A DNA stretch of 64,000 nucleotides, taken from assembly GCA_037446635.1 (NCBI GenBank), contig JBBIIG010000001.1:228752-292751 (forward strand), written 5' to 3'. Numbering within the stretch: position 1 is the stretch's first letter; every line of letters begins with the position of its first letter. Of the stretch, positions 24,226 to 45,228 are shown one piece after another. Source of the stretch: a bacterium. Lineage in GTDB: Bacteria > Zhuqueibacterota > Zhuqueibacteria > Oceanimicrobiales > Oceanimicrobiaceae. The notes under the pieces were generated by a model, which ran no database searches, was not told the DNA's origin, and was given only the letters and a program-made list of their open reading frames with translations. Both the position numbers and the translations under genes were made by a program.

Positions 24226-25539
24226 TCACAGCTTGCGAAAAACCTGCGCGACGGCCTCAACCGTGTTTGCTACATCCCCCTCCGAATGAGCCAGCGAAAC
24301 GAACGCTGCCTCAAACTGCGACGGCGCAAAATAGCTGGCGCCTGCCCGCCCAGAGCCTAAGGCAGACGGGCGGCTCAGCATTTCGTGGAAGAATTTGGCG
24401 TAACGTTGGGTGTCGGCAGTTTTGGCGGTGGGCCAATCCACTACAGTTTCGGAAGTAAAAAACATTCCTAACATCGAGCCGACGCGGGTTTGGAAAATCG
24501 GCACACCGGCAGACTCGGCGGCTTGTTTAATGCCATCAGCCAATTGGCTGGCGAGTTTTTCGAGTTTGGGATAAGTGTCCGGCTGTTTCAAAATTTTCAG
24601 TGTGGCGATGCCGGCGGTCATGGCCACCGGATTCCCCGCAAGTGTGCCAGCCTGATAAACCGGCCCCACCGGCGCAATGAGCTGCATAATCTCTTTGCGT
24701 CCGCCGTACGCGCCCACCGGCAATCCCCCGCCGATGATTTTGCCGAGACAGGTGAGGTCGGGCATGATGCTGTACAACTGCTGAGCGCCGCCGTACGCTA
24801 CCCGAAAGCCGGTAATGATTTCATCGAAAATCAATAGCGAATTATGAGCCTGCGTAATCTCGCGCAGACCTTCGAGGAATCCGGGTTGCGGCAGCACGAC
24901 GCCCATGTTGCCCGCCACCGGCTCGACAATCACGCCGGCAATCTCATTCGGAAATTTTTCGAAAAGTTGGCGGACGGAATCGAGATCGTTGTAGCGCGCC
25001 ACGAGGGTATCCCCCACCGCGGTTTTGGGCACGCCCGGACTATCCGGCAGTCCCAACGTGACCACACCGGATCCCGCTTGCACCAGCAGCATGTCCGCGT
25101 GACCATGATAGCACCCCTCGAATTTGATGATCTTGTCGCGTTTGGTGTACGCGCGTGCCAGCCGCAGTGCGCTCATGGTGGCCTCGGTGCCGGAGTTCAC
25201 AAACCGCACCATCTCGATGGACGGCACGGCCTCCACCACCATCTGCGCCAACTCCACTTCTACTTCGGTGGGCGCGCCGTAACTGGTACCGTTGCGAAGG
25301 GCGCGAGTCACGGCTTCAGTCACTTCCGGATGGGCGTGGCCGAGGATCATTGGTCCCCACGAGCAGACGTAGTCGGTGTAGCGGTTGCCATCGACATCAA
25401 ACAGATACGGCCCCTCGGCGCGAGCGATGAACCGCGGCACGCCGCCCACAGCTTTGAAAGCGCGCACCGGACTATTGACGCCACCGGGGAGAAGCTCTTG
25501 GGCGCGAGTGAAGAGTTTTTCGGAGTTTTGGGTTTTCAT
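24226..25539 (-). CDS. hemL: glutamate-1-semialdehyde 2,1-aminomutase
   Basis: [52 protein letters not shown]. Confidence 0.97.
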
Positions 25540-25620
25540 TGGTATTCTACCTTCGACTTGTTCAGAAATCTTTGAAAGAACAGGCATAGGCAGCCCGCTG
25601 AAAACTGGCTTTCATAGATC

Positions 25621-26019
25621 TCACCAAAGATAAGTCAAGCCATGCTTTGAGTATTCTTTGATTTCGCTATCTTTTGAAATCAGTCTGAGTTTTTCGTTTA
25701 TTGCCTGCCAAATGATGAGTCGGTCAAACGGATCTTTATGCTTGAGTTTTGGAAGATTGTGGAAGGAAGCCGCTTGATGTTCGGATATTTGTAGAGTCTC
25801 GATTCCTACCTCTTTTGCTTTTTCGGGTAGATCATCCGGGGAGATGCCTTTCAATGCCAGTTTTCCAATTGCGAACTGTAGAGAAATTTCCCAAAACGTA
25901 ATGACGCTCACATAGATTTCATTCTCAGGATTTCTGATTGCATCTTGAACCTTATTTGAGAGCCGTTCATCCTCAAACAGAGTCCAAAGAAAGGCATGGG
26001 TATCGAGCAGATATCTCAT
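25621..26019 (-). CDS. vapC: VapC/PIN-domain toxin
   Basis: LLDTHAFLW, S...WEI, HKDPFDRLII. Confidence 0.92.
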   Translation of the reverse strand: MRYLLDTHAFLWTLFEDERLSNKVQDAIRNPENEIYVSVITFWEISLQFAIGKLALKGISPDDLPEKAKEVGIETLQISEHQAASFHNLPKLKHKDPFDRLIIWQAINEKLRLISKDSEIKEYSKHGLTYLW

Positions 26020-26255
26020 GACTCAAAGAGTTCTTGTTCGGTCATTTTGAAACCATCTTTGAGTTCAAAAGTCGCCTTTCCCTTCAAAATACCCAACGGG
26101 CGTTCGCTCTTTCTTATATATTTTTCGTAAGGCACAATGATGGCAATCTTGTCACTCGTTTTGTTTTTACTGACAATGATTTCTTCGCCGTTTTTTACCA
26201 TTTCAAAAACTTTTGCGAAATTGTTTTTGATTTGCGAATAAGTTATGGTCTTCAT
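26016..26255 (-). CDS. Phd/YefM-family antitoxin
   Basis: MKTITYSQIKNNFAKVFEMVKNGEEIIV; 4-nt overlap with vapC. Confidence 0.88.
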   Translation of the reverse strand: MKTITYSQIKNNFAKVFEMVKNGEEIIVSKNKTSDKIAIIVPYEKYIRKSERPLGILKGKATFELKDGFKMTEQELFES

Positions 26256-26330
26256 TTGTTAAATCCCGTTTGACAATTCAAGTAGTAGAATCTAATCCTG
26301 AGAATCAAATAAAACAACGGAAAAATAGCG

Positions 26331-26446
26331 CCCCAGTCTATCCTCAGGCACTTCGCCGCATCCTTTGCATGATACGTCAAAAATCACATCCGCGCCGGCG
26401 CGTTTGAATTTCCAGCGCGATGGCCTGCACGTTGATCCTGCCGTTT
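26331..26446 (-). pseudogene. degenerate duplicate of the hemB 3' end
   Basis: cacttcgccgcatcctttgcatgatacgtcaaaaatcacatccgcgccggcgcgtttga closely matches 27319-27376, followed by further patchy similarity to about 27425. Confidence 0.85.
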
Positions 26447-26463
26447 CCACGCTTAAAACAATA

Positions 26464-27285
26464 TCAACCATGATGATGATTTTCGTCCTTTGGCTTCGGT
26501 TTTCGATAAAATCTTAGATTAAAGTTATCTTCGATTGCTTCTTTCAATCTTTCTGGACAACAAAACGACAAACATGGTGTACCCAAACCTAAACTTAATC
26601 CACCGCGCCAAAGTAATTCTTTGTCATCTTCTGTTACAAAAACCTGTGATTGTTTGCAAAGCGCAGCAAGTACTAACTCAAAATCTTCGTTTGGCATTAA
26701 AGAGTTTTTTGCAAGCTCCTGTTCGTATATAAATCCTTTTTTCATATACCAGTCTGATCCAAAAACTTTAATATATTCGAGGATGGAAACCCGATGTTTT
26801 CTTAACAAATCGTCAATCAGAGTGAACACGGATTTCAGTCCTTTTTTCCATTCTACAAACAGCCTTTGCATGTCAAGATAGTGTAAAGCCTCTTTAGTGT
26901 GAGACTTGTTAATGAATTTATCAATGTTTTGCTGACTTGATTCGAAGAAGTCCCAGCCTTGCCACTCCTCACATAAATTATACCAATAATAGGAATTACC
27001 AATCTCATCAATATTGGGTTCTTTCTTGAATAGTCTTTGCCCAATATCATTTATTTCTTTGGAAATTAATTTCTTTAGAGGGTGGTTTTTATTTGAGCTT
27101 TTATCTTTAGTTGTACCCTTAACCATTGAGTATAATTCATAGACACATTTTCGAAATGTCACAACCTTGAATTTGGATTCTCTCAAAGTATCGAGAACCT
27201 CAAGTCCTTTACTAGACTCACCAACGATGTGTGCGAGTACGTTCGTATCAATAAAAGCGCTTTTTTCGGTAGGATACATTACCAT
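26464..27285 (-). CDS. AT-rich PIN-like domain protein with large insertion
   Basis: AFIDTNVL..VYEL at the N-terminus and NEDFELV..FVTEDD at the C-terminus match the PIN acidic-residue pattern; start uncertain. Confidence 0.65.
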   Translation of the reverse strand: MVMYPTEKSAFIDTNVLAHIVGESSKGLEVLDTLRESKFKVVTFRKCVYELYSMVKGTTKDKSSNKNHPLKKLISKEINDIGQRLFKKEPNIDEIGNSYYWYNLCEEWQGWDFFESSQQNIDKFINKSHTKEALHYLDMQRLFVEWKKGLKSVFTLIDDLLRKHRVSILEYIKVFGSDWYMKKGFIYEQELAKNSLMPNEDFELVLAALCKQSQVFVTEDDKELLWRGGLSLGLGTPCLSFCCPERLKEAIEDNFNLRFYRKPKPKDENHHHG

Positions 27286-27308
27286 TTGTTGTACATCTAA
27301 TGGTTCCA

Positions 27309-28280
27309 TCACCCCAGCCACTTCGCCGCATCCTTTGCGTGATAGGTCAAAATCACATCGGCGCCGGCGCGTTTGATGGACGTGAGAATTTCCAGCGTGA
27401 TACCCTGCTCGTTTATCCAGCCGTTTTGCGCCGCGGCTTTCACCATTGAGTACTCGCCGCTGACGTTGTATGCCGCGAGCGGCAAATCAAATCGCTCCTT
27501 CACCCGGCGAATCACATCGAGAAAGGCCAGCGCCGGTTTCACCATCAACATATCCGCGCCTTCCTTCACATCCAGCTCCGCTTCGCGCAACGCCTCGCGC
27601 ACGTTGGCGGGATCCATTTGATGCGTGCGGCGGTCGCCAAACTTCGGCGCGGACTCCGCGGCGTCGCGGAACGGACCGTAAAAACTGGAGGCGTATTTCA
27701 CCGCGTAACTCAAAATGGGAACTTTGTCAAATCCGGCTTTGTCGAGGCCATCGCGGATGGCGCCCACCATGCCATCGAGCATGCCGGAGGGCGCGACGAT
27801 ATCCGCGCCGGCGTGGGCGTGCGAGGTCGCCTGCTTCGCCAGCAGCGGCAACGTGACATCGTTGTCCACGGTTTGATCTTTGATCACGCCGCAGTGGCCG
27901 TGGTCAGTGTACTCGCAAAAACAGACATCGGTGATGACGAGGATGCCCGACACCGTTTCCTTCACCGCGCGCACCGCCTGCTGAATGATGCCGTTGTCGT
28001 TGTAGGAATCGGAGCCGTATGCATCCTTCGATTTCGGAATGCCAAACAGCATAATGGCCGGGATGCCGAGCGACTTGGCTTCCTCGACTTCCTTCACAAG
28101 ATTGTCGATGGAAAGCTGATACTGACCGGGCATCGAGGCGATAGGCTTTTTGGCTTTCGCCTCGTGGGTCACAAACAAAGGATAGATGAAATCATCCACG
28201 GAGAGTTTGGTTTCGCGCACCATGCGCCGAATCTCGGCGGTGCCACGCAAACGACGAGGACGGATGTGGGGTTTATGCAT
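27309..28280 (-). CDS. hemB: porphobilinogen synthase
   Basis: [47 protein letters not shown]. Confidence 0.98.
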
Positions 28281-28305
28281 AGCGCACCTTTCTGATTAAA
28301 AATTG

Positions 28306-28436
28306 GACGTAGATTTCGCAGCTGAACGCAGATTAAATTTTTTTGCCACGGATTCGCACGGAGGAAACACAGATTTTTTTTATTGAGATATTCGAACTAC
28401 ATTGCATCCGTGGGCATCTGTGTCAATCAGTGGTTT
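28306..28436. repeat. intergenic element of CACGGA/CACAGA short repeats and their complements
   Basis: gccacggattcgcacggaggaaacacagatt ... atccgtgggcatctgtgtcaatcagtgg. Confidence 0.65.
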
Positions 28437-28442
28437 AATCTT

Positions 28443-29864
28443 TTAATTGCTATATGAATCAGCGGTTGCTGAAACCGTCGTCGGCTTTTTGCAAAACGCT
28501 GCCACCTTTTCAGCAACCCCTTCCGACTGCACGATGCAATCTCCCACGGAAATTCCGCCGCGGAAATTGCCGGAGATGAAAATTCCCGGATGATTGCGCT
28601 CAAAATTTTCGGCGGCTTCGATGCGCTGCTGGTGTCCCAACTCATATTGCGGAATCGCTTTCTCCCAACGCTTGATTTTCACGATGTCCGGCTGTCCCGC
28701 GAGTCCCATAATTTCGCGCAGATCGTTTTGCACTAATTTCAAGAGTTCATCATCGTCTCGACTCACCAACTCCGGCTGACGCATGCCGCCAACAAATGTA
28801 GTTAATGCAATGCCGCCCTCCGGCGCGCGATTCGGAAAAATGGTCGAGCTCCAAATCGTGCCGAGGAGGTTGCGCTTCTCGACTTTCGGCACGAGAAATC
28901 CGAAGCCGTCGAGGGGCCGGCAAGGCGGCTGCTTTTTGAATCCTAAGAATACCATTGCCACCGGAGGATAAACAATTTCGTGGAGTTTTTCGGAAAGCGT
29001 CGAGTCGAATGGTTGCAGCAAACTTGCTGTGACGTACGCCGGAGTGGTGAAGATCACACTTTTCGCCGTCACGATTTTCGACTGGCCGGCTTGGGTGTAT
29101 TCGACTCTCCACGAATCATCATTTCGGTAAATTCTTTTGATTTCAGTTTTGGTTTGAATATTCTCGCGCAGATTCTTTTTCAAACCTTCCACCAATTCGG
29201 CCATGCCGTTTTGAAAAGAGAAAAGTTGGGCGCGAGTTTTGTCGGTCTCCGTGCGTTTCTTCCGCTCCTTCGCCCCTTTGATGGCGCCTTTGATCAAGCT
29301 GCCATAATTTTTTTCGAGGGCATAAATTTTGGCCACGGCGCTGCGCACGCTCAGCCGCTCCGGATCGCCGGCATAAACTCCGGCCACAAACGGATTGATG
29401 GCGTAATCGAGAAATTCCTGTCCGAGCCGGCGTTTCACAAATTCGGCAATGGTTTCTTCTTTGTCCGCCGGCGCGGGAGAAATGAACGGCTCGGCGAACA
29501 ATCGCAGCTTGGCTTTCCACGAAAACAATTTTGATTTGAGAAACTGCGGCGGATTCATGGGCAGGGGCTGCAGCACGCCACCGCGCAAAACATATCGGCG
29601 ACTTGCCGAGGCATTGGCGTTGACGCGACTCTCCTCCACTCCGACGGCTTTGATGAATCCGCGAATTTTGGGCGAAGTGTCGAGCGTGCTGTTGGGACCG
29701 TAGTCGATGAGAAAGCCATCGTGCTGCTCGCTCAAAATGGCGCCGCCGATGTGATCGGATTTTTCGAGGACCAAAATTTCGAAGCCGCTGCGCTGGAGGC
29801 GAAAGGCGGTGGCGAGTCCGGAGATACCGGCACCGATGATGAGGGTATCTTTTTCGAGGGTCAT
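28443..29864 (-). CDS. hemY: HemY-type (proto/coproporphyrinogen) oxidase
   Basis: IIGAGISGL FAD motif, GPNS, GVYAGDP, GFGFLVP, AIPQY..GH. Confidence 0.95.
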   Translation of the reverse strand: MTLEKDTLIIGAGISGLATAFRLQRSGFEILVLEKSDHIGGAILSEQHDGFLIDYGPNSTLDTSPKIRGFIKAVGVEESRVNANASASRRYVLRGGVLQPLPMNPPQFLKSKLFSWKAKLRLFAEPFISPAPADKEETIAEFVKRRLGQEFLDYAINPFVAGVYAGDPERLSVRSAVAKIYALEKNYGSLIKGAIKGAKERKKRTETDKTRAQLFSFQNGMAELVEGLKKNLRENIQTKTEIKRIYRNDDSWRVEYTQAGQSKIVTAKSVIFTTPAYVTASLLQPFDSTLSEKLHEIVYPPVAMVFLGFKKQPPCRPLDGFGFLVPKVEKRNLLGTIWSSTIFPNRAPEGGIALTTFVGGMRQPELVSRDDDELLKLVQNDLREIMGLAGQPDIVKIKRWEKAIPQYELGHQQRIEAAENFERNHPGIFISGNFRGGISVGDCIVQSEGVAEKVAAFCKKPTTVSATADSYSN

Positions 29865-29948
29865 TTGCTTTGATTCAAATTTGCCACAAAGGCACAGAGG
29901 TCACCGAGTAAAACACCATTCTTGTTAACCAGTAGAAGGCCCATGAAA

Positions 29949-30089
29949 TGCCATTTCGAGCGAAGCGAGAAATCTGACGGAGAATAGAGTCAGCGATTAC
30001 GCTCATAGTTGATTTGATCAAGGGACGATCTGATTGCCGCCAGATTTCTCACCTCGACAAAAGCAAAAGCGTCGAGGTTCGAAATGACA
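29949..30089. repeat. MITE/RPE-like palindromic intergenic element
   Basis: TGCCATTTCGAGCGAAGCGAGAAATCTG ... CAGATTTCTC ACCTCGAC..GTCGAGGT TCGAAATGACA nested inverted repeats. Confidence 0.75.
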
Positions 30090-30106
30090 ATTTCCAATGG
30101 TCATTA

Positions 30107-31357
30107 TCAAACAGCCGACTCAACTTGCACTCCCTCCCAACACACCGCCTCCGTAATATGCTCGCACTGATGGCAACGCGTCGTGCGCCTCGCTTCCGAG
30201 AATTTTGGCAATTCCTGTCCGCCAATGCGGATCGGCTCAGCCGAAATCGGGCGCAACTGGCCGTTGGATGGTAACTGCACCTGCGAGATTGTCGCCTCGG
30301 CCAACGCTTGGATGAACAGCGGGTGCGAATTCAATCCACTGGTGACTTCATAATGCTGAATGCCGAACTCCTTCGCCTGATCGCGAATCAGCATGTTGAG
30401 CTCGAACAGCGTCTCGATGTGATCGGTGACAAACGCCACCGGGATAATGAGCACCGCTTTGTGTCCAGCGTCGGCAAGTTCTTTGAGTTTGTCCGGCGTG
30501 CTGGGCGTCAGCCACTCGGCAGGACCGACTTTGCTTTGAAACGCCACGTGAAATGGCAAATCGCGTCCGCGGAAATTCATCACCTGCTCGACAGTGGAGT
30601 GAATGAGACAGCAATAGGGATCGCGGCGCTTCTTCATTTCATAAAGCGGCGTGCCGTGCGCGCTGAACACGAGCTGCATGTCCTCGCGCGCCTCTTTCGG
30701 AAATCGCTTCAGCCCCTCGTCGATGCGGCTGCTGATGGCCTGCACGAACTTCGGATGCGCCGCGTATTCGTAAACATAGGTCGTTGGCCATTTCGGGATT
30801 TCGCCGTTCTGCTCCAGCATCCACCAATAAACCAGCGACGATCCCGTGGTAGTTTTCGAATACTGCGGATAGAGCGGCAGCAGCACCACTTTGGTCACGC
30901 CATCGCGCTGCATCTGCGCCGCGGCTTCTTCAGAGGTGGGATGCCAGTAGCGCATGGCAATATACACGCGGAATGTCACGCCCGCCGCTTTGCCGTAAGT
31001 CTGATTCAACTCGCGTTCGAGATTCTCGGCCTGCTCGCGCGTGAGTCGGTTGATGGGCGAGCCGCCGCCGATTTTCTGGTAATCGTGTCCCACCCGCTGC
31101 GACCGCCGCGTGGAGATAAATTTCGAAAGCCAATGCCGCAAAATTCCCCCAAACGGCAAATCGATGATCGCGGGATCCATGAACAGATTGTAGAGAAATG
31201 GCTCAACATCGGCGCCGGTGTCCGGCCCGCCGAGGTTCATCAACACCACGCCAATGGTGTCGCCGGACTCGGCTTGAAGCGGTGCGGCGGGATAGTAATT
31301 GCCGGTGATTAATCGTTCATCGTATTTGTATTTTTTGAGAAAGGTTCGAGCGTCCAA
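30107..31357 (-). CDS. hemH: ferrochelatase with Cys-containing C-terminal extension
   Basis: LMNLGGP, IGGGSP, AMRYWHP, LYPQYSKTTTGSS, FSAHG, FQSKVGP.EWL.P, DHIETLFEL. Confidence 0.97.
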   Translation of the reverse strand: MDARTFLKKYKYDERLITGNYYPAAPLQAESGDTIGVVLMNLGGPDTGADVEPFLYNLFMDPAIIDLPFGGILRHWLSKFISTRRSQRVGHDYQKIGGGSPINRLTREQAENLERELNQTYGKAAGVTFRVYIAMRYWHPTSEEAAAQMQRDGVTKVVLLPLYPQYSKTTTGSSLVYWWMLEQNGEIPKWPTTYVYEYAAHPKFVQAISSRIDEGLKRFPKEAREDMQLVFSAHGTPLYEMKKRRDPYCCLIHSTVEQVMNFRGRDLPFHVAFQSKVGPAEWLTPSTPDKLKELADAGHKAVLIIPVAFVTDHIETLFELNMLIRDQAKEFGIQHYEVTSGLNSHPLFIQALAEATISQVQLPSNGQLRPISAEPIRIGGQELPKFSEARRTTRCHQCEHITEAVCWEGVQVESAV

Positions 31358-31390
31358 GTTTCTGACTCCTGATCTGATTTTTAACTACGA

Positions 31391-31578
31391 GGATTAATGG
31401 ATAGTTGGATCAATGGATCAATGAACGGCGAGGAGTGGTGGAGTAATGGAGTGATGGAGTAGTGTAACTCAAAACTCTGCTTTGAGATGCAAACCAGAGG
31501 TTTGCGTTACGTCCAACATCAATCTATTGATCCATTAATCCAATAATCCGACACTCCACCACTCCAATACTCCACCAC
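31391..31578. repeat. inverted arrays of 8-mer repeats (TGGATYRA / GGAGTRRT)
   Basis: ggagtggtggagtaatggagtgatggagtagtg ... actccaccactccaatactccacc; similar tracts at 33024-33190, 40117-40180 and 60319-60350. Confidence 0.75.
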
Positions 31579-31583
31579 TGCAG

Positions 31584-32984
31584 TTATACCGTTCGCGAAT
31601 ACACCGGCGTCTCCTGCGGCTTCGGCTGCTTTAGATATTTGTCGAAAACCATGGCGATGTTGCGGATGAGCAGCCGCCCCATTTCAGTGACGACGATTTT
31701 GCCGTTCGGCCATTCGATGAGTCCGTCGGCGGCGAAGCGTTCCAATTGCGGCAGCGCGTCTTCAAAATAATTGTCAAAGTTGATGTTGAATTTTTTCTCC
31801 ACGCGTGATTTGTCCAATTCGAAATCGCACATGAGGCGCATAATCACATAACGCCGCAACTGATCGTCGTCGGTGAGACGGTAGCCGCGCTGCGTCGCCA
31901 GCTTGCCGCTTTCAATTCGTTTATAGTAGTGCGGGATGTCTTTGAGATTCTGCGCATACACGTTGCGCAACTGACTGATGCTCGACATCCCGAGTCCGTA
32001 GAGATCGCAGCCCCACTTCGTCGAGTAGCCCTGAAAATTGCGGTACAGCGTTTTCTCCCGCAGCGCCTGCGTCAGGGAGTCGTTCTCTTTGGCGAAATGA
32101 TCCATGCCGATGTAAACATAGCCCACCGACGTGAGCTTCTCGATAGTTGTTTTCAAAATGCTCAGTTTCTCTGCAGCTTTTGGCAGTGTGCTTTCGTCAA
32201 TTACGCGTTGATGTTTTTTCATCCACGGCACGTGGGCGTAATTGAAAATGGCCAGACGGTCCGGCGAAATATCGATGATGCGGTCGAGGGTGCGTTGGAA
32301 CGAGGCCTCGGTTTGAAACGGTAGCCCGTAAATCAGGTCGAGGTTGATGCTGTCGAAGCCCCGCGCTCGCAAACCGTCGAAAGCCCAGCGCGTCAGCTCT
32401 TCGGATTGCAGGCGATTGACGGCCTGTTGCACCTGCGGCTCGAAATCCTGTACGCCCATACTGGCGCGATTAAACCCAACGTCGCGCAGGGCGTCGAGAT
32501 GAGCTTCGGTCATGCCGCGCGGATCAATTTCAACGCCAATCTCAGCGTCGGGATGAAATTCGAAATGCTCGCGGGTGGCCGCAAACAAGCGGCGAATCTG
32601 ATCCGGATCGAGGTACGTGGGCGTGCCGCCGCCCCAGTGTAGCTGGGCAACCTTTCTCCCTTTTTTCGTCCGTGCCGCAATAAGTTTGATTTCTTCAATT
32701 ATATAGTTGAGATAATCCTCGATGCGCTGGCGGTTGCGAGTGATGATCATCGTGCAGCCGCAAAAGTAGCACAGCGTGTCGCAAAAAGGCAGATGAAAAT
32801 ACAGCGACAAATCCGCGGGACTTTCGAGCTCGTTGGTTTCGCGAATTTCTTTATCGAATGCTGCCGCCGCGAATCGATCAGTAAATTGCGGCGCGGTGGG
32901 ATAGCTGGTGTAGCGCGGCCCCGGCTGATCGTACCGCCGCAGCATCTCGATGTCTACTTGCAGAGTTTTTGTTGGCGTTGACAT
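31584..32984 (-). CDS. hemN: oxygen-independent coproporphyrinogen III oxidase (radical SAM)
   Basis: GPRYTSYPTA, CDTLCYFCGC, HWGGGTP, IGMDHFA, RNFQGYST. Confidence 0.98.
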   Translation of the reverse strand: MSTPTKTLQVDIEMLRRYDQPGPRYTSYPTAPQFTDRFAAAAFDKEIRETNELESPADLSLYFHLPFCDTLCYFCGCTMIITRNRQRIEDYLNYIIEEIKLIAARTKKGRKVAQLHWGGGTPTYLDPDQIRRLFAATREHFEFHPDAEIGVEIDPRGMTEAHLDALRDVGFNRASMGVQDFEPQVQQAVNRLQSEELTRWAFDGLRARGFDSINLDLIYGLPFQTEASFQRTLDRIIDISPDRLAIFNYAHVPWMKKHQRVIDESTLPKAAEKLSILKTTIEKLTSVGYVYIGMDHFAKENDSLTQALREKTLYRNFQGYSTKWGCDLYGLGMSSISQLRNVYAQNLKDIPHYYKRIESGKLATQRGYRLTDDDQLRRYVIMRLMCDFELDKSRVEKKFNINFDNYFEDALPQLERFAADGLIEWPNGKIVVTEMGRLLIRNIAMVFDKYLKQPKPQETPVYSRTV

Positions 32985-33194
32985 TGACTACTCAATTGGT
33001 TTATTTATGTTCAAGTGGTGAGGGAGTATTGGAGTAATGGAGTTTTGGAGTACTGGGGTACTGAAAAAGGAAACGTCAAACGTGAGACATGAAACGAAAA
33101 TTTTGACTTTTGAAATCTGCAATTTGCAGTCTGCAATTCCATTGATCCATTAATCCATTGATCCAACAATCCAACTCAACACTCCAGAACTCGA

Positions 33195-34259
33195 TTACTC
33201 CATCGAGGAACCCCGCAACTTTTCACTCTCCTCCTTCACAAACTCAACCATGGCCTTTGCGTTTTCCACCGGCGTCTGCGGCAGAATGCCGTGGCCTAAA
33301 TTGAAAACGTGGCCGGCACCATCGCCGGCCTTTTCTAAAATTTTGATGACTTCCGCGCGCAGCCGATCCTTCGGCGCAAACAATGCGCACGGATCTAAAT
33401 TGCCCTGCAACGCGACTCTATCTCCAACTTGTTTGCGAACTAATGCAAGATCGGCGGTCCAGGAAAGTCCGAGGGCATCGGCGCCGATTTTTGACAGCGG
33501 TTCGAGGGAGTAACGCGCATCGCGGGCAAAAACGATGATCGGCTCGCCACTGCGTTTGATGCTCTGCACGACTTGCTTCAAATACGGCAGCGAGAATTCC
33601 CGAAAATCATCGGGGGATAACTGGCCGGCCCAGCTGTCGAAAATCTGCACCACTTGCGCACCGGCTTCAATCTGCGCGCTGAGAAAATCGGCCACAGCGA
33701 CGGTTAGTTTCTCCAACAAATTTTTTAGGAGCCCGGGGGACGTGTACATCAGACTTTTGATTTTCGTGAAATCCTTCGAACCCTGTCCTTCGACCATATA
33801 CGCCGCCAGCGTCCACGGCGCGCCGGCAAATCCGATGAGCGGCACGCGGCCGTTCAATTCTTTGCGAACCAGTTTCAGTGCCTGCAAAACAAAATCGAGA
33901 CCTTCTTCCGGAATCACCGGCCGCAGCTTCTCGAAATCCTTGGGATCGCGCAGTGGCGCCTCGAACACCGGCCCCCGACCTTCGTGAAAATTCAGCGCCA
34001 TGCCCATGGCTTCGGGAATGACGAGAATATCGGAAAAAATAATGGCCGCGTCAACCCCGATAATGTCCACTGGCTGCAGCGTTACCTCGGCGGCCAACTC
34101 CGGCGAGTGGCACATCGTCATGAAATCGGCCTTCGCGCGGACTTTCTGATATTCGGGCAAATAGCGGCCAGCTTGTCGCATGATCCACACTGGCGTTCTC
34201 GGCGTCGGCTCGCGGCGGCAGGCTTTGATGAGCAGATCGTTTTTTAGTTTTTCAGTCAT
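33195..34259 (-). CDS. hemE: uroporphyrinogen decarboxylase
   Basis: PVWIMRQAGRYLPEY, IIFSDIL, GFAGAPWTLA.Y, FNLGHG; start at MTEKLKND. Confidence 0.98.
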   Translation of the reverse strand: MTEKLKNDLLIKACRREPTPRTPVWIMRQAGRYLPEYQKVRAKADFMTMCHSPELAAEVTLQPVDIIGVDAAIIFSDILVIPEAMGMALNFHEGRGPVFEAPLRDPKDFEKLRPVIPEEGLDFVLQALKLVRKELNGRVPLIGFAGAPWTLAAYMVEGQGSKDFTKIKSLMYTSPGLLKNLLEKLTVAVADFLSAQIEAGAQVVQIFDSWAGQLSPDDFREFSLPYLKQVVQSIKRSGEPIIVFARDARYSLEPLSKIGADALGLSWTADLALVRKQVGDRVALQGNLDPCALFAPKDRLRAEVIKILEKAGDGAGHVFNLGHGILPQTPVENAKAMVEFVKEESEKLRGSSME

Positions 34260-34280
34260 TAGCAAAATTCCACTATTCTT

Positions 34281-34309
34281 GTAGGGAACGCATTCTATGC
34301 GTTCCCTAC
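34281..34309. repeat. GTAG-type REP-like palindrome overlapping the hemD stop codon
   Basis: GTAGGGAACGCAT-TCT-ATGCGTTCCCTAC. Confidence 0.8.
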
Positions 34310-35095
34310 TTCGGTATAAAAATCCGCGATGGCTTGGGCTAAATCTGGAATCGTGGATTTCGCCGGCACAATGTTTGCCAGCAATTCCAGCTCGCGCAAC
34401 GCCTCTGCGGTGACGCCGCCAATTGCGGCGATCTTGCATCCGTGTTTCAGCCAGCGTTCTATTTTATCGCGCCCAATTAACGCAACAAAATTTCGAACCG
34501 TCGCGGGACTGGTGAAGGTCAGCACATCAACTGAATGGCCATTGAGCGCTTTGGCAATTTCGGAAGAATTGCATTGCGCTGGCGGTTGATTTTTGTAAAC
34601 TGCCACGGTATCGACCTGCGCGCCTAATTTGACTAACTCATTCACCAAAACCTCGCGACTTTCTTGAGCTTTCGGAATGAGGATTCGCTTCCCGCGCAGG
34701 TCGATCTCGGAGAAAGCTTTCGCCAACCCTTCGGCGCGAAATTCCTCGGGCACGAGATCGACGCGCACGCCGATTTCTTGCAACGCCATTTTCGTTCTTT
34801 CTCCTACGGCTGCGATTTTCGCCGCATTCAATTCGGAAATGGAGCGGCCTCTTCCCTCGAGTCGTTTCACAAAAAATCTCACCCCGTTAACGGAAGTAAA
34901 AATCAGCCAGTCATAGCGAGATAGATTTTCGAGAGCAGCGTCGCAGGCTTCCCATGAATCCGGTGGCACGATTTCAATCGTTGGAATCGCAATCACCTCC
35001 GCGCCCAAATGTTTGAGCGGCGCGATGAGCTCATGCGCTTGATCTTGCGCGCGGGTGACGATGATTCGTTTTCCGGCGAGTGGCTTCTTCATCAC
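34295..35095 (-). CDS. hemD: uroporphyrinogen-III synthase
   Basis: PLAGKRIIVTRA, IFTSVNGV, AAVG..T, FTSPATV. Confidence 0.95.
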   Translation of the reverse strand: MMKKPLAGKRIIVTRAQDQAHELIAPLKHLGAEVIAIPTIEIVPPDSWEACDAALENLSRYDWLIFTSVNGVRFFVKRLEGRGRSISELNAAKIAAVGERTKMALQEIGVRVDLVPEEFRAEGLAKAFSEIDLRGKRILIPKAQESREVLVNELVKLGAQVDTVAVYKNQPPAQCNSSEIAKALNGHSVDVLTFTSPATVRNFVALIGRDKIERWLKHGCKIAAIGGVTAEALRELELLANIVPAKSTIPDLAQAIADFYTEVGNA

Positions 35096-36000
35096 GAGTT
35101 CTCTTTCAAAACCAACGCCACTTTTTCGGCAACGGCCCTGGCCTCTTCAATTCTGCCAGCAACTTTTTCTTTTCTAAAATGACTTCCATCTTCTTCCGCT
35201 ACAAATGCGTGGAAGATCATTTGCCCGCCGTTGATTTCACAAAAGCCGCCCATCGGTGTCTGGCAGCCGCCGCCCATCGCTGCGAGAAATGTGCGCTCGG
35301 CGATGACGGCAATTTCCGTGAGTTGATGATTCAGCGGTTTCAGCAGAGATTCGGTCTCGTGATCGTTTTCACGAATCTCGACGCCCACGGCGCCCTGTCC
35401 TACAGCCGGGATCATCAAATCATAGTTCAAATATTGCTGGATGCGGTGCTGCCAACCCATCCGGGTTAAACCAGCTGCCGCGAGAACGATACCGTCGTAT
35501 TCTTCACTCTCCGCTTTTCGCAGCCGCGTGTCGATGTTACCGCGAATAGCGATGATTTCAAAGTCCGGCCGCAGCGTCAGCAACTGAGATTTTCGTCGCA
35601 AACTGCTGGTGCCGATTTTCGCGCCCGCCGGCATTTCCTCCAAATTCTTTTTAAAGTGCGTCACAAAAACGTCGCGCGGGTCAACTCGCTCGGTGATGGC
35701 GCCAATCTTCAATCCCGCCGGAAATTCAGTTGGTAGGTCTTTCATACTGTGCACCGCAATATCGATTTCATTTTCGAGCAGTTTGTCCTCGATCTCCTTC
35801 ACGAAAACGCCTTTGCCCGGCATCCGGCTCAATGCGGTGTCCAAAACCTTGTCGCCGGTGGTGACGATCTCGATGATCTGAATTTGCAGTTGCGGCTGGA
35901 GTTGCAAAAGCTGGTCGATGACGGCGTGGGTCTGAGCTTTGGCTAACGCACTGCGCCGGGTACCGACGCGCAGTGGTCTATTTAAATCGTAGGAATACAA
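35092..36000 (-). CDS. hemC: hydroxymethylbilane synthase
   Basis: GTRRSALA.AQ, FVKEIE, VHSMKDLP, GTSSLRR, RGNIDTRL, GGGCQTP. Confidence 0.97.
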   Translation of the reverse strand: MYSYDLNRPLRVGTRRSALAKAQTHAVIDQLLQLQPQLQIQIIEIVTTGDKVLDTALSRMPGKGVFVKEIEDKLLENEIDIAVHSMKDLPTEFPAGLKIGAITERVDPRDVFVTHFKKNLEEMPAGAKIGTSSLRRKSQLLTLRPDFEIIAIRGNIDTRLRKAESEEYDGIVLAAAGLTRMGWQHRIQQYLNYDLMIPAVGQGAVGVEIRENDHETESLLKPLNHQLTEIAVIAERTFLAAMGGGCQTPMGGFCEINGGQMIFHAFVAEEDGSHFRKEKVAGRIEEARAVAEKVALVLKENS

Positions 36001-37308
36001 TTACGCTCTGTTTTCTCCGCGAAGCGAATCGGATGACAACCCAAAGAGATTGCGAACGGCAGCGGTGTAGCTCTGGCCGTTGCCCTCGGCAGCTTCCGCT
36101 CGCAAACGCACGATGGGCTGATGCAGCATTTTGTTGACGATGCGCCGAGCCAACTCCTGCACTACCTGCACGTCGTGCTCTGGCAGCTCGGCTTGCAGAC
36201 GGCGCAGCGCGCGTTCCACTTCCTGCGACTGAATATCTTCCGCGAAACTGCGCAGGTCGGTGATCACAGGCGTGACTTCCAGCGACTGCCGCCACGCCGC
36301 AAAATTGGCCATTTCTTGTTCAATGATATTTTTCGCTTTGGTGATTTCCGCGCAGCGTTTGCCGCCGTTGCTGTCCAACTCAGATTTGAGATGATCGATA
36401 TTATAAAGCTTAACTGAATTCAGAGCGCTGACTTCCGGATCGACGTCCCGGGGGACGGCCATGTCAACGATCAGCAGCGGGCGGAACCCACGGTTGGCCA
36501 GCGTTTGCTGCACCATCCCTTTGCTCAACACAACATGCGGCGCGCCAGTCGAGCTGATAACCACGTCCGCATTTTTGAGGCAATCTTCGAGTTTATCAAA
36601 TCCAAAGAATTTGACATTGAGTCTGGCAGCAACGTCTTTCACTTTTTCTTCCGTGCGATTGATCACTGTAACATCGCTTGCCCCACCTTTCAACAGCGCC
36701 TTCACCGCCAACAAACTCATTTTGCCCATGCCGATTACCAAAATGTTGAGACCGGTCAGCCCGCCGAACGATTTCTTCACCAACGCCACCGCGGCATGGC
36801 TGACCGAAGCCGAGTGCTCGCTGAGGGCGGTTTCGGTGCGCACGCGCTTGCCGACGGTCAACGCATTGCGGAACAGCGCCGAAAGCAGCGGCCCAACGGT
36901 TTTGAATTTTTGCGCTGCCTCAAACGCCTCTTTAATTTGACCCTGAATTTGCGCTTCTCCTAAAATCATCGATTTCAAGCCACTGGCAACCGAGAAAAGA
37001 TGCTGCTCCACCTCAGCGCCTTCAAGAACGTAGAGATAGGGCTCAAAATCTTTGCGGGGCGTTTTTTTAAAATTGGAAACAAATTCCTTTATTTGTTGGA
37101 TACCCGCCTGCGCGTTTTTTACCGCCGCATAAATTTCGACGCGATTGCAGGTGGAGAGAATTACGGCTTCTTCAATTTGCGAGTACGAATTTTCATGCTT
37201 GAAGAGTTTGACCAAAGCCTCGGCTAAAATGGAGGGGTGAAAGGCGAGTTTTTCACGAAGTTCTACTGGGGCCGTTTCATGGTTAAGTCCTATCAAAACA
37301 TAGTGCAT
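36001..37308 (-). CDS. hemA: glutamyl-tRNA reductase
   Basis: GLNHETAPVELRE, catalytic STCNR, GEAQI.GQ, IGMGKM, D.AVPRD; start at MHYV. Confidence 0.97.
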   Translation of the reverse strand: MHYVLIGLNHETAPVELREKLAFHPSILAEALVKLFKHENSYSQIEEAVILSTCNRVEIYAAVKNAQAGIQQIKEFVSNFKKTPRKDFEPYLYVLEGAEVEQHLFSVASGLKSMILGEAQIQGQIKEAFEAAQKFKTVGPLLSALFRNALTVGKRVRTETALSEHSASVSHAAVALVKKSFGGLTGLNILVIGMGKMSLLAVKALLKGGASDVTVINRTEEKVKDVAARLNVKFFGFDKLEDCLKNADVVISSTGAPHVVLSKGMVQQTLANRGFRPLLIVDMAVPRDVDPEVSALNSVKLYNIDHLKSELDSNGGKRCAEITKAKNIIEQEMANFAAWRQSLEVTPVITDLRSFAEDIQSQEVERALRRLQAELPEHDVQVVQELARRIVNKMLHQPIVRLRAEAAEGNGQSYTAAVRNLFGLSSDSLRGENRA

Positions 37309-37331
37309 AAGATTGATTCGCCTCAATTACT

Positions 37332-37365: not shown

Positions 37366-37381
37366 ATCAAAAATAGTGCCA
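37366..37381 (-). promoter_or_regulatory. sigma54 (-24/-12) promoter of the hem operon
   Basis: Minus strand TGGCACTATTTTTGAT against consensus TGGCAC-N5-TTGCW; correct spacing, C to A at -12. Confidence 0.65.
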
Positions 37382-37473: not shown

Positions 37474-37501
37474 CGGTTTTTTTCCAATATGAAAAAAACC
37501 G
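37474..37501. promoter_or_regulatory. candidate upstream activator sequence (enhancer)
   Basis: Perfect 11-bp inverted repeat CGGTTTTTTTC-caatat-GAAAAAAACCG about 95-120 bp upstream of the -24 box. Confidence 0.45.
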
Positions 37502-37565
37502 AACTAAATTGAAAAGTCAGATACGACGCCAGCGCTCATAAAAGTGAAATCAACAAAAATTGTTG

Positions 37566-37649: not shown

Positions 37650-37671
37650 TAAATTGAAGGAGAAAAAACAA

Positions 37672-38970: not shown

Positions 38971-38974
38971 CCAG

Positions 38975-40255: not shown

Positions 40256-42259
40256 ATGAGACAAAAAATCGTTTTTGCGTTCATCCTCTCGCCGCTGCTG
40301 TTTGCGGTCGTCTTCCTACTGCTGCCAGCCGACAACGCCGCTAATCGAGCCTCGGATCCCGCCGGCAACGGCGTTTCCAATTCAGCAGCCGTCTCCGCGG
40401 ACAGGCTAATCTTTCTCTTACAATATATCAGCATCGACTACGGCGGCGCGGTGGCAAACCAGCGCGTCATCAATGAATTCGAATACAGCGAAATGCTGGA
40501 CTTCGCAGCCACCGCGGACGAATGGTACTCGCAACTCCGTGGGAAAAACAGCGATCCTTTCACGCAGCAAAAACTTCAGCAGCTAAAAAGTTTAGTCGAA
40601 AGCAAAGCCAACTGGTCTGAAATCAAAGACAGCGCCGGCGAGCTGATTCATCAATTGTCGCAAGAATTGAACGTCATCCCCTACCCAACGAAAACTCCCA
40701 ATTTGAAAGTGGGGCAAAATCTTTATCGCCAGGTCTGCGCCGACTGCCACGGCAGCAGCGGCGATGGCCGCGGCCCCGCGGCGGCGTGGCTCAATCCGCC
40801 GCCGAGCAATTTCCAAAACAATGAACGAATGAACTTGGCCACGCCCCACCAATTTTTCAACGCCATCACCTTCGGCGTCGCCGGCACCGCCATGCCTTCC
40901 CATCAGCAGGCGCTCAGCGACCAACAACGGTGGGACATCGCCTTTTATTTGATGACGTTGCGGCAGGGATTCAATCCGCGGACACCGGCGGGCGACGTCA
41001 AGCTTTCGGTGAACGAACTTGCCGGCGCTTCCAACACCGAGCTCGCGGCAAAACTTAAATTCGACGCGAAGAATATCGACGAATCGAATCTTTTTTCCAC
41101 GGTGGATTACTTTCGCCAAAATCCGCCGCAGGTCAGCGTTGAAGAGCAGCTTACCTTCACCCGCCAAAAACTGCACGAAAGTTTGACGGCTTACAAAAAC
41201 GCCGATTTCACCGGCGCGCTGAACGCCATCACCGACGCCTACCTTGCCGGCGTGGAGCCATTGGAAGCGCAGCTCCGAAGGGCGGATGTAACGGCCCTCG
41301 AAATGGAATTCAGCAAATTACGCAACGCCATTCTCACGCAGCGGCCGTTCTTTGAGGTCGAGGTGCACTACGACAACCTCGACCGGCGGCTCAACGAAAT
41401 CCGCACCGCCGGACCATCGGTCGCGCAGCGCGGCTTCGTTCTGCTGCAGTCGTTGACCATCATTTTAAGAGAAGGCATCGAAGCGATTCTACTCATCGCG
41501 TTGATGTTCACCTACCTGGTTTCCGCCGGCTACAGCAATCTGAAAAAATACGTCGTCAGCGGCGCGCTCGCGGGGCTGGCTGCCGGCGGGCTAGCCTGGT
41601 TTACCGCGCAGTTTTTGCTGACGATCTCCATCATCCAGCAGGAGGCGCTGGAAGGAATCACCTCTTTGCTGGCGGCGGCGGTGCTGTTTTTCGTCAGCTT
41701 TTGGATCATTCACAAAGTCGATATTCGCAAGTGGAAAACTTTCATCCGCACGAAAGCAGAAAAAGCGCTGGGGACCGGCAGCGGCCTGGCGTTGTCCGCG
41801 GTAGCGTTTCTGGCGGTATTTCGGGAAGCCTTTGAAACGGTTTTGTTCTATCAGGTTTTGTGGCTGCGCAGCGATGCCGAACGAACGAGCGTCGTGCTCG
41901 GCTTCGTGCTGGGCGCGGCGGCGCTAGCCTTGGTTCTCTACCTCGTTTTCAAATTAGGTGCGAGGCTGCCGCTGAAACCGTTTTTCATTAGCACCGGGAT
42001 TCTGTTAGGCATGCTGGCGTTCATGTTTGCCGGCTACGGCGTGCGCGAGTTGCAGAACATCGGCGTGTTGAAAGAGACCCTGCTGCCGTGGGATCTCCGC
42101 TGGCCGGTTTTAGAAATTCATCCCACCGTGGAAGGCCTCGCGCTACAAATGGCAATGCTGATTTCGTTTATCCTGGGGTGGTTTTCAGTGTTAGCGGAAA
42201 AATTGAAAAAAGCGGAAAAGCGGATTCGTTTGCGGCCGGTGGCGGTCAAAACGGATTAA
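40256..42259 (+). CDS. cytochrome c-FTR1 (EfeU/PbrT-type) iron permease fusion
   Basis: LLQYISIDY; CADCHG heme c motif with GTAMP axial Met; two RExxE motifs (REGIE, REAFE). Confidence 0.92.
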   Translation: MRQKIVFAFILSPLLFAVVFLLLPADNAANRASDPAGNGVSNSAAVSADRLIFLLQYISIDYGGAVANQRVINEFEYSEMLDFAATADEWYSQLRGKNSDPFTQQKLQQLKSLVESKANWSEIKDSAGELIHQLSQELNVIPYPTKTPNLKVGQNLYRQVCADCHGSSGDGRGPAAAWLNPPPSNFQNNERMNLATPHQFFNAITFGVAGTAMPSHQQALSDQQRWDIAFYLMTLRQGFNPRTPAGDVKLSVNELAGASNTELAAKLKFDAKNIDESNLFSTVDYFRQNPPQVSVEEQLTFTRQKLHESLTAYKNADFTGALNAITDAYLAGVEPLEAQLRRADVTALEMEFSKLRNAILTQRPFFEVEVHYDNLDRRLNEIRTAGPSVAQRGFVLLQSLTIILREGIEAILLIALMFTYLVSAGYSNLKKYVVSGALAGLAAGGLAWFTAQFLLTISIIQQEALEGITSLLAAAVLFFVSFWIIHKVDIRKWKTFIRTKAEKALGTGSGLALSAVAFLAVFREAFETVLFYQVLWLRSDAERTSVVLGFVLGAAALALVLYLVFKLGARLPLKPFFISTGILLGMLAFMFAGYGVRELQNIGVLKETLLPWDLRWPVLEIHPTVEGLALQMAMLISFILGWFSVLAEKLKKAEKRIRLRPVAVKTD

Positions 42260-42314: not shown

Positions 42315-44288
42315 TCAATTGGAATGCCGCTGCTGCGAACTAGTGATGTGGTACTCCTTCATTTTCCGCCACAACGTGGTGCGGCCAATTCCCAAAATTT
42401 TGGCCACCAGATCATAGTTCCAATCGAATTCCTGCAGCGTCGCGGCGATGTGATTTTTTTCCAAATTCTTCAAACTCAAATCGGCGGCGTCGGCGCGGTG
42501 GTTGGTCGCGGTAGGTTTGAACATATTTTGGGGGAAATCTGCCTTGCTTAAATATTTTCCCAAACACAACGCCGCCGCCCGCTCGATGGCGTTCTCCAAC
42601 TGGCGCACGTTGCCGGGCCAATCGTATTCGCACAACAGCTTCTGCGCTTCCTCGTCGATGCCGTAAATGGTTTTGTGAATTTTTTCCGCGTATTTTTTGG
42701 TGAAAAATTCCGCCAGCGGCAGAATATCTTCTCGATGATCTCGCAGCGGCGGAATGGTGATTTGAATCACATTCAAACGATAATACAAATCCTGCCGGAA
42801 CAATCCCTGCGCGATCATCTCTTCCAAATCGCGGTTGGTCGCGGTAATCAATCGCACATCCACCTTCAGCGTTTGATGACTTCCCACGGGCTTGATTTCT
42901 CCCTCTTGCAAAAAGCGCAAAAGTTTAACCTGCATCGCCAGAGAGGTTTCGCCAATTTCGTCCAAAAAAATGGTGCCGTGGTTGGCCGCTTCGATTAAAC
43001 CTTTTTTGTTGTGAGTGGCGCCCGTGAACGCGCCGCGCACGTGCCCAAACAACTCGCTCTCCAGCAAACTTTCCGGCAGAGCGCCGCAGTTGACGACAAT
43101 GAAAGGATTTTGCGCGCGGCTGCTGTGCTCGTGAATGGCGCGGGCAATCAATTCTTTGCCGGTGCCGCTCTCGCCATCGATGAGCACGGAAATATCGGTC
43201 TGCGCGATGCGCGCCACCAGCTCCAGAATATTCTGCATCGCCGGACTTTTGCCAATGATGTTCCCGAAACGATATTCTTCTCGTGAATTGACCCAGGCGA
43301 TAAAATCATCCACTTCGCGATCGATGAGCTGTTCGATCACCGCGGCCACCTTCTGATGTTCTTTCAAATTGCTGGCGACGATTTTTTCCAGATCGCGCTT
43401 GTTGTAATAATAAATGTTGTACACGTCCGAAAGGTTGAGCTTTTCAAAAACATCCGGCTGCGAATCGTCCAGATAAGAGACAAACAACAGCGGCCGGTTA
43501 TTGCGCCGGCTCATCATTCTTGAGATCTGCTGCTGTTCAAAAATCGGCGCGAAATCTTTGCTGTACATCAGCAGCAAGTCGATAGACGGCAGAACCTGAC
43601 TGAGCTGCTCGGTCTTAATTTTCGCGCCGCCAAAACGCTCAATCAACGACGCGCTCTTGTTATGAAAATCCACAAGGAAAAGTTCGCCAATATTCTGCTC
43701 TTTTAGTTTTTTAACGAGCGGCTCAAAGGAATAACCGTCCGCGGCGATCAGCGCTTTGTGGTCTTTGAGATCGCCGAACATTTTCTGGGCGATCTCCACC
43801 AGCACTGATTCCGCGGTGATGGCGTTTTTTTGAACATTAAGCTGGATTCGGATTTTCTCCGCCAACCACAAACCGCGCTGAAAAAGTTTATTTAACTTCG
43901 GACCCACCAGGTTCAAACTGCGGGACTTTTCAAACGCCTTCCGAAAGTCTTCAAGCGAATGCGTCATCTCCCCCGCTGCATCCATGCCAATTGCCAGCCG
44001 GAAAAATTCACGCAGGGCATCCGGGCCATCGGCGCGGAAACGACGGCTTTGCAAAACCTCAGCCGGCGCTTCGTATTCTTTTTGCAGTTCCACATAAAAT
44101 TTTGAAATCAAAATGTCCCGCTGCTCTGCCACCGCGAAGATTTGTATTCTCTCCCCAGCTTGATAGACAAACATCTCCTGCGCCGAAAGTTTTTTGCCGG
44201 CAAACTCGGCGAGAGTGGTCAAGTTGCGCGCCCAGCTCTCCCGCGCTTGTGACTCGGAATAATCAAAACCGAAGGTAAAAATTGGCAT
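42315..44288 (-). CDS. sigma54-dependent enhancer-binding protein with N-terminal degenerate glutamyl-tRNA reductase domain
   Basis: [29 protein letters not shown], Fis-type [14 protein letters not shown]; first ~335 aa align by eye with HemA (see findings). Confidence 0.9.
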
Positions 44289-44294
44289 AGCCGC

Positions 44295-45122
44295 TTATTG
44301 AAAATTATGAAACTTTGAAAAAAACAAATTGACAATGATAAACGAAAACAACAACCAGTTGAACCCGATCACCGACACCACGGCCGCTCGCAAACCCTGC
44401 CAGCCGACGATTTTCCGCGTCACATAGTGCGCGAGGTAAATGGCCCACGAAATCACCACCGCCAGCAGTTTTGGGTCTAGCGCCCAGCGGCCCTCCCAGA
44501 CCCTCGTCCCCATGTAGAACCCCAGAACGATGCCAAGGCTCACCACAATTAAGCCGATGTTCACGGCTTGATTGCTGAGCTTGTCCACATATTCCAATGA
44601 CGGCAGCCGCTGAAAAAAAATCCCCAACTTTCTCGTGCGCATTTCCCGCGCCAACAAAATGTACATGATGCTGGTGATGAACGAGATACTGAACGCTGCG
44701 TAAGCGGAGATCATAATCGCCACGTGCACCTCAAACAACAGTATGGTGCTCAGCAACTCGGCAAGCGGTTTATCGAAGTCAATGAAAGCGCTGGAGATGC
44801 CGTGTAAGATGAGAATGATGGGAATGAAAAACACGCCCATCGTCATCACTTTGGCGCGAATTTCGATGATGAGATAGACCAGCACAAAAAACCAGGCGCA
44901 GGTGGTCAGCACCTGAAAGACGTCGCCCACTGGAATGTGCTGTAGTTTCAAACCGAGCAAGATCAAATAAATGGTATGACACCCGGCTGAGAGCGCCAGC
45001 CAAAATCGCAGCCGAGACTCGGTTGCCTGTTTTTTTATTCGGAAATAATAAAAATAATAGCCGAAGCTCACGCCGTACAAAACGAACACCAGCCAACTGA
45101 GAGACCGCAGAATTTCGATCAC
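44295..45122 (-). CDS. HemX/CcsA-family (cytochrome c assembly) membrane protein
   Basis: About 8 TMs; HV.....AYAAF, RLPSLEYVDKL, W...W..DPK, W.G.RAA, terminal H; 6 nt upstream of the EBP gene. Confidence 0.85.
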   Translation of the reverse strand: MIEILRSLSWLVFVLYGVSFGYYFYYFRIKKQATESRLRFWLALSAGCHTIYLILLGLKLQHIPVGDVFQVLTTCAWFFVLVYLIIEIRAKVMTMGVFFIPIILILHGISSAFIDFDKPLAELLSTILLFEVHVAIMISAYAAFSISFITSIMYILLAREMRTRKLGIFFQRLPSLEYVDKLSNQAVNIGLIVVSLGIVLGFYMGTRVWEGRWALDPKLLAVVISWAIYLAHYVTRKIVGWQGLRAAVVSVIGFNWLLFSFIIVNLFFSKFHNFQ

Positions 45123-45228
45123 TTTTCACCCAAAAATTTTCGATTTTCATTTTGAAAATAGGAAATCCTGCTCTGAAATGCAAGCACGGAATAGGTAAGG
45201 ATAATTCTCCCTTTCCGTATCTTGGTTA

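Follow-up and report, generated by a model that had tools for sequence, protein, structure and literature searches.

An inactive copy of the enzyme that starts heme synthesis, fused to a sigma54 activator and accompanied by a HemX-like membrane protein, appears to activate genes for heme synthesis or uptake

Analysis of a stretch of bacterial DNA of 64,000 nucleotides (the window) confirmed that a degenerate copy of glutamyl-tRNA reductase (HemA, GtrR or GluTR) is fused to an intact sigma54 activator. This inactive version of the enzyme that opens the heme pathway, together with its membrane neighbor, appears to switch on the genes for heme synthesis or heme uptake, and we give the overall explanation, in which HemX governs the heme genes through the pseudo-HemA activator, a probability of roughly 0.65. 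The probable novelty lies in the pseudo-GluTR input module and its likely membrane partner, sigma54 activators and the hemX-hemA pair being known already. A literature search, in which few subscription journals were covered, found no description of this architecture. The features are collected in Table 1.

Table 1. Positions of the regulator, its neighbor and its predicted targets in the window
Feature	Position	Strand	Basis
Fusion of pseudo-HemA and sigma54 enhancer-binding protein, 657 aa	42315..44288	-	ORF translation, Pfam
Input module (pseudo-HemA), aa 1-335, with GluTR catalytic-domain fold and Rossmann domain	43284..44288	-	Pfam, model, Foldseek
AAA+ domain and lid, aa 344-599	42492..43259	-	Pfam, motifs
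Fis-type HTH, aa 606-646	42351..42473	-	Pfam
HemX/CcsA-like membrane protein (PF01578), 275 aa, stops 6 nt before the activator	44295..45122	-	Pfam
Predicted autoregulatory site close upstream of hemX, a perfect TTTTCA-N3-TGAAAA palindrome	45144..45158	.	pattern
Intact hemA (STCNR, GEAQI, GMG), at the head of the predicted target operon	36001..37326	-	Pfam, TIGR01035
Rest of the co-oriented hem cluster: hemC, hemD, hemE, hemN, hemH	24226..36000	-	Pfam
Further genes in the same interval: hemY, hemB, unrelated ORF, hemL	24226..36000	-	named from translations
Predicted sigma54 promoter TGGCAC-TATTT-TTGAT upstream of hemA	37366..37381	-	pattern
Predicted tandem enhancer (UAS): palindrome 37481-37495 (1 mismatch) and weaker copy 37501-37515	37481..37515	.	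pattern

Structure and degeneration of the fusion protein

A Pfam scan of the fusion protein placed GlutR_N at residues 24-147 (34 bits, cut-off 27) and Shikimate_DH at residues 165-302 (32.6, cut-off 24.3), followed by Sigma54_activat (344-510), AAA_lid_14 (516-599) and HTH_8, also above cut-off, and gave no match to the dimerization domain GlutR_dimer (PF00745). The core features of a sigma54 enhancer-binding protein are all present, namely Walker A (372-379), GAFTGA (419-424) and Walker B (441-445), which an earlier note on this DNA had already described as intact, and likewise the R-finger (497-505), sensor II (557-566) and the HTH. GAFTGA was found in 38 of 40 full-length fused ORFs, and the HTH signature [GS]R[AT]TLWRK in all 40 examined. 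None of the NCBIfam activator models scored above its cut-off for the fusion protein. ATP-dependent activation of transcription, a trait of such enhancer-binding proteins, is predicted for the fusion.

The N-terminal module belongs to the GluTR fold, as indicated by the two Pfam domains and by a profile match of 8.6e-40. The TIGR01035 (hemA) model matches residues 32-334 with an E value of 2.3e-35, under the model cut-off. Alignment with the real HemA of the window is colinear over 315 columns (23% identity, E 2e-14), in agreement with the earlier note, whose six quoted segment pairs occur in both translations. In a Foldseek search with an AlphaFold2 model of residues 1-335 (pLDDT 83), a comparison which that note had suggested, the top seven matches are GluTR structures, the best being 1GPJ (E 2.3e-17, TM 0.62), and the next family reaches only 6e-5, confirming the fold. 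GluTR clusters alone were matched in the ESM Atlas, all under 0.9. AlphaFold2 models show a long helix (297-334) that continues into the AAA+ domain; the full-length model is of low confidence (pTM 0.44) and silent on domain contacts.

Residue counts were taken from an alignment of 45 fused modules and 44 real HemAs of the same phylum. The catalytic Cys (TCNR) is kept in none of the fused modules and in all 44 real HemAs. Among the 45 modules, the Arg of CNR survives in three, the Glu in two, the two pocket Gln positions in seven and five, and Arg218 in five; in GExQI, Gln remains in seven and Ile in none. The first Gly of the NADPH loop is found in 26 and the second in five. Structural positions, for example Glu38, Gly101, Arg262 and Trp332, persist in 41 to 45 of the modules. 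The earlier note had stated that catalytic Cys, GExQI and the NADPH-binding loop are all lost. The Cys and the Q and I of GExQI are indeed gone, but the loop of the window fusion reads AADG, in which Ala183 replaces the first Gly and Gly185 corresponds to the second; close relatives may retain the GE of GExQI, Glu107 being conserved in at least 90% in one alignment and placed differently in another. Judged from these losses in the catalytic Cys, GExQI and GxG loop and from the missing dimerization domain, the module is predicted not to be an active glutamyl-tRNA reductase. The idea of a dead HemA as the input domain of an activator was thus borne out by domains, fold and residue loss.

Distribution and ancestry

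A profile search through 167 genomes of the phylum located the fusion in 66 and HemA without it in another six, 72 in all. The fused ORF was read in 46 of the 66; for the others, 20 in number, the assignment depends on the profile score and the length of the open frame. G158 and G162, which belong to the 66, are unpublished, and without them the fusion stands at 64 of 165 genomes and the TonB receptor described below at 20 of 21. Fragmented assemblies predominate, and genomes of relatives do not constitute independent observations. A chimeric assembly, considered in the earlier note, is refuted by these 46 genomes and by 14 other fused proteins among 18 matches. DNA contigs matched the window only as pieces from relatives, one of them covering 43024-44980. 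Named relatives mostly belong to candidate division KSB1, some carrying the depositor labels Calditrichaceae, Calditrichota or Cytophagia, and one 1.4-kb contig is also filed under Saccharibacteria. Database names for the fused proteins are either glutamyl-tRNA reductase or sigma54-interacting regulator. Among the best 150 matches from 1.84 billion representatives, the high-scoring long proteins are such fusions and the rest are HemA, and a metagenome scan with the fusion P0161 gave 11 loci, all matching the AAA+ part alone.

A quick tree of 82 rows (no bootstrap, several long branches) places the 26 fused modules together on one side of a branch, with an SH-aLRT value of 97. P0161 is the least degenerate fused module and the nearest to real HemA; it and P0173, the two fusions closest to real HemA, have lost the catalytic Cys and keep GEP-IL. 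Other HemA fusions, P0149, P0148 and P0087, have an intact CNR, their extra parts being C-terminal AsnC/Ahb-like repeats, an N-terminal SirC-like domain and a hemerythrin-like tail (all judged by eye).

The upstream gene hemX

The membrane-protein gene lies directly upstream of the fusion in 45 of 45 paired loci, with a gap of at most 30 nt in 39, and the fused loci without it are all interrupted by contig ends. Neighborhood conservation, a check proposed in the earlier note, therefore extends to every fused locus with upstream DNA. HemX is a PF01578 protein that adjoins gtrR in 106 of 113 hemX genomes, and it lowers GtrR after transcription by an unknown route (Choby et al., PMC5801465). In the parts of that study drawn on here, no partner of S. 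aureus HemX is identified, its heme binding is unvalidated and direct GtrR contact is unproven; a 2024 review (PMC10991733), in the part drawn on here, still calls the mechanism unknown.

The upstream gene is read as HemX because of several observations. It is a PF01578 gene adjacent to a gtrR-type gene without CcsB/ResB, the adjacent gene here being the dead copy. In three genomes in which no fusion was found (G085, G092 and G093, the last a single contig), a ccsA-like gene directly precedes the real hemA. The window's own genome (97% complete) encodes two further PF01578 proteins of CcmC and CcmF size, and ResB was not found in it, so that the hemX copy would not be needed for cytochrome c maturation. 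Some fusion genomes also carry separate genuine resB-ccsA pairs elsewhere. Finally, two HemX histidines show no variation in 45 of 45. These residues, His133 and His272, are aligned to H761 and H897 in CcsBA (7S9Y), which are described as the periplasmic heme ligands P-His1 and P-His2 (PMC11322641, in the part drawn on here). The hemX-fusion pair is the known hemX-hemA pair, repurposed. An identity as the cytochrome c synthase CcsA was rejected, given that no ResB was found and that TIGR03144 scores 116 bits against a cut-off of 188; the WWD tryptophans are also gone, the motif being reduced to D216/K218. His49 (41 of 45) and His232 (35 of 45) could form a second site.

One motif of the dead module offers a lead on the surface that HemX may contact: K[ILM][FY], which closes helix 159-171, occurs in 39 of 45 dead modules versus 14 of 37 real HemAs of fusion genomes and also in 3 of 3 HemAs that still adjoin hemX, a comparison confounded by kinship.

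Predicted target operons

The hem operon, proposed as the target in the earlier note, is preceded by a predicted sigma54 promoter and enhancer. The promoter is the sole match to the sigma54 consensus in the 64-kb window, its UAS lies about 107 nt upstream of the -24 element, and rpoN is present. Among the 39 fusion genomes with DNA available upstream of the hemA operon (two more offered none), 37 show the pattern YGG[CTA]AY-N5-TTG[ACT] there. None of the six HemA-only genomes shows it, one of them being represented by just 469 nt of upstream sequence. Sites of this type in the phylum mostly have TTGA or TTGT in place of TTGC at -12. Elsewhere in the phylum, other families replace the hem gene set of the window by sirC-hemA-hemC and a long hemD and still share its promoter and UAS; where sirC precedes hemA, the sigma54 site lies about 600-700 nt upstream.

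The UAS consists of two TTTTCA-N3-TGAAAA copies, 20-22 nt apart, 80-200 nt upstream of the promoter. A tandem palindrome with at most 4 mismatches of 24 was found at 33 of 36 loci, versus 0.2% of shuffles. Because this consensus had first been read from the same sequences, a matrix built from 12 own-family loci was tested on held-out data, and at all 21 loci from other families it outscored every one of 100 shuffles. Matrices built without the window ranked the hemA site first in its own 4.6-Mb genome, at 51.8 versus 33.5 for the next independent site. An IHF site between UAS and promoter was weak (14 of 36 within one mismatch versus 21% in shuffles), and a candidate Fur box near hemA and the porin gene was rejected, its match to the consensus being 13 of 19, no better than other sites in the window.

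The palindrome also occurs at the regulator's own operon. Within one mismatch it is found twice in the window, before hemA and before hemX, which is not unusual by count but unusual by position. Of 19 loci from close relatives, 18 have it where hemX begins (versus 0.9% of shuffles), and none of 25 more distant loci does. In the window its position coincides in part with that of a loose sigma70-like element (TTGCAT-17-TATTTT, 45183-45155), which went uncalled by the promoter scanner. The presence of the palindrome at this operon links the motif to this activator rather than to any other of the numerous sigma54 activators encoded in these genomes.

A phylum-wide exact-pattern search matched 46 of 167 genomes. 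Of 14 palindrome sites in genomes without a detected fusion (L150-L163), 13 have no nearby sigma54 match and one has. G051 has fusion and UAS, yet no promoter match, and G003 and G144 have hemA without a hemX orthologue, fusion or sites. In G086 (94% complete), in which the fusion was not found, a hemX orthologue has no activator behind it (L166, G086:C19:28000-34000), and a near-perfect UAS precedes sirC-hemA (L092), with promoter spacing one base short; the fusion was possibly lost recently. A second hemA copy at L097 (G047:C58) has an internal stop in the dimerization domain and no UAS.

A different target is predicted in genomes without HemA. In 11 genomes (completeness 90% or more, contamination 5% or less), hemX and the fusion are present and no GlutR_dimer (HemA) or HemC match was found; in a direct TIGR01035 search of five near-complete fusion genomes, none had a HemA above cut-off. 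The motif search found UAS and promoter before a lipoprotein, a TonB receptor and often a membrane protein in nine genomes. An orthologue of the receptor occurs in 22 genomes, 21 of them with the fusion. Eight of the 11 HemA-less genomes carry this operon, all eight with UAS and sigma54 site. Nine of 12 further regions fetched by receptor homology have UAS and promoter, with 0 of 100 shuffles as good for each; the other three show a contig end, direct succession to hemL and no promoter match, respectively. The best NCBIfam model for the receptor is the heme receptor TIGR01785, below its cut-off (179 bits versus 317), FRxP and NPxL motifs occur in 7 of 7 receptors, and the ESM Atlas gave nothing named for the lipoprotein. 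In G142, the UAS and sigma54 elements precede a different TonB receptor and HmuY. The TonB-receptor operon is likely to serve heme uptake, and the predicted target in many genomes would be an uptake-type operon of this kind. The window's own genome has no orthologue of it (best 27%). In G138, a UAS and sigma54 site precede a subtilase lipoprotein gene adjoining the fusion (L103:1365-2507).

Several other features of the window were observed. The hem cluster (24226-37326, minus strand) combines hemN with a HemY-like oxidase and ferrochelatase, and a low-GC ORF between hemB and hemL (26464-27321, minus strand) is PIN-like by eye. Divergent from hemA, a plus-strand operon (37654-42259) encodes a porin-like protein, an FMN-binding protein, a 177-aa membrane protein and a cytochrome c-FTR1 iron permease. 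It shares a 327-nt intergenic region with hemA and adjoins hemA or the fusion in several relatives; a sigma54 promoter for it was not found, a weak match overlapping the first codons of the porin gene. Two paralogous SulP-STAS-cNMP transporters are encoded at 45423-47639 and 50963-53185 (plus strand), one being divergent from hemX in many own-family genomes, and a low-GC ORF at 49601-50923 (plus strand) has an HNH-like motif by eye.

Proposed mechanism and alternatives

Sequence, fold and gene order suggest that an ancestral hemX-hemA pair was duplicated and that the hemA copy beside hemX lost catalysis and the dimerization domain and became fused to a sigma54 activator, in an order of events that we infer. 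From the site patterns, the activator very probably binds the tandem palindromes, opens the sigma54 promoter of the hem or uptake operon, and binds its own upstream region, where it probably acts as a repressor. There is a good chance that the dead HemA module is the surface on which HemX acts. HemX would bind heme through His133 and His272; the match of these residues to a periplasm-facing site is a point against this model. When heme is sufficient, HemX would tether the activator at the membrane, block its assembly or lower its level, the last of which would parallel the lowering of real GtrR by HemX in Firmicutes; when heme is short, the activator would be freed and synthesis or uptake switched on. 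The long helix 297-334 could carry the signal to the AAA+ domain. This sign and mode of control, with the activator held under sufficiency and released under shortage, is somewhat favored, since activation of both synthesis and uptake indicates activity under heme shortage, which fits the negative role of HemX.

In the strongest alternative, which is nevertheless unlikely, the pseudo-HemA binds heme or porphyrin directly as a one-component sensor and HemX is just a co-transcribed heme handler. The fold is kept and aromatics are conserved (Trp332 in 44 of 45), but the module has no conserved His, Cys or Met as a likely axial ligand, a His at the HemA H103 position occurs in just 20 of 45 modules, and it is HemX that carries two invariant histidines and is never parted from the fusion gene. 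Retention of hemX and the fusion in the 11 genomes without detectable HemA or HemC favors heme sensing through HemX. The same retention of hemX tells against a module that is only a vestigial scaffold, the activator being constitutive or otherwise signaled and HemX still acting on real HemA. Divergence to 13-27% identity to the query in distant families would suit such a scaffold, which is improbable in view of the full length and conserved surface retained.

The earlier note had proposed a one-component sensor that reports heme or Glu-tRNA status, or that binds HemA or HemX. A one-component sensor of Glu-tRNA or of HemA was not supported: the lost pocket, the absent dimerization domain and the 11 near-complete fusion genomes without HemA or HemC argue against both signals. 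Sensing of Glu-tRNA, glutamate semialdehyde or NADPH, that is, of precursor supply, would accord with the retention of both substrate and Rossmann domains and of GEP-IL of the substrate motif in the rarer relatives P0161 and P0173, but the family-wide loss of pocket residues and the persistence of the fusion in those genomes make it very improbable. Binding to real HemA as a report of its level is the least credible reading, for although GluTR forms dimers and the module preserves the long spinal helix, the AAA+ domain replaces GlutR_dimer and all five genomes searched directly gave no HemA above cut-off. HemX, which the earlier note had mentioned in parentheses, is the best-supported partner, adjoining the fusion in every paired locus, and the system therefore probably comprises two proteins.

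Implications and comparison with known systems

The pseudo-GluTR module adds a new type of input domain to the sigma54 activators and is a clear case of an enzyme copy retained for its regulatory surface. The broader proposition, that HemX is a membrane heme sensor docking on the GluTR fold and that a phosphorylation-free two-protein system runs both heme synthesis and uptake, stands at even odds. If HemX does dock there, the kept surface of the dead copy would mark the long-sought HemX site on real GtrR. The system offers a transcriptional read-out of HemX control over the first enzyme of heme synthesis, making HemX action testable, and gives, for a phylum that is largely uncultured, a predicted heme regulon with its operator sequence, to which a candidate uptake operon belongs.

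The fusion shares with glutamyl-tRNA reductase HemA/GtrR (TIGR01035; PDB 1GPJ, 4N7R) the catalytic-domain fold, Rossmann domain and spinal helix in colinear order, whereas it lacks the catalytic Cys, ExQI and dimerization domain, has a broken NADPH loop and has gained AAA+ and HTH domains. Like the NtrC/NifA/PspF class (PF00158), it has all core motifs, a Fis-type HTH and a UAS of tandem palindromes placed some 80-200 nt upstream of a -24/-12 promoter, but its input domain is a pseudo-GluTR. Activators inhibited by a partner, such as PspF by PspA and NifA by NifL, may provide a functional analogy to HemX and the fusion. HemX shares PF01578 with CcsA/CcsBA (PDB 7S9Y) and, by alignment, the P-His1 and P-His2 positions, in contrast to which it lacks the WWD tryptophans, and no ResB was found in its own genome. 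The closest parallel in gene arrangement is the HemX-GtrR pair of S. aureus and B. subtilis, where a PF01578 membrane protein likewise lies beside a GtrR-fold gene and is linked to heme homeostasis; there, as far as the cited part of that study goes, the level of the enzyme is lowered after transcription, whereas here the neighbor is a dead copy mounted on a transcription activator (PMC5801465).
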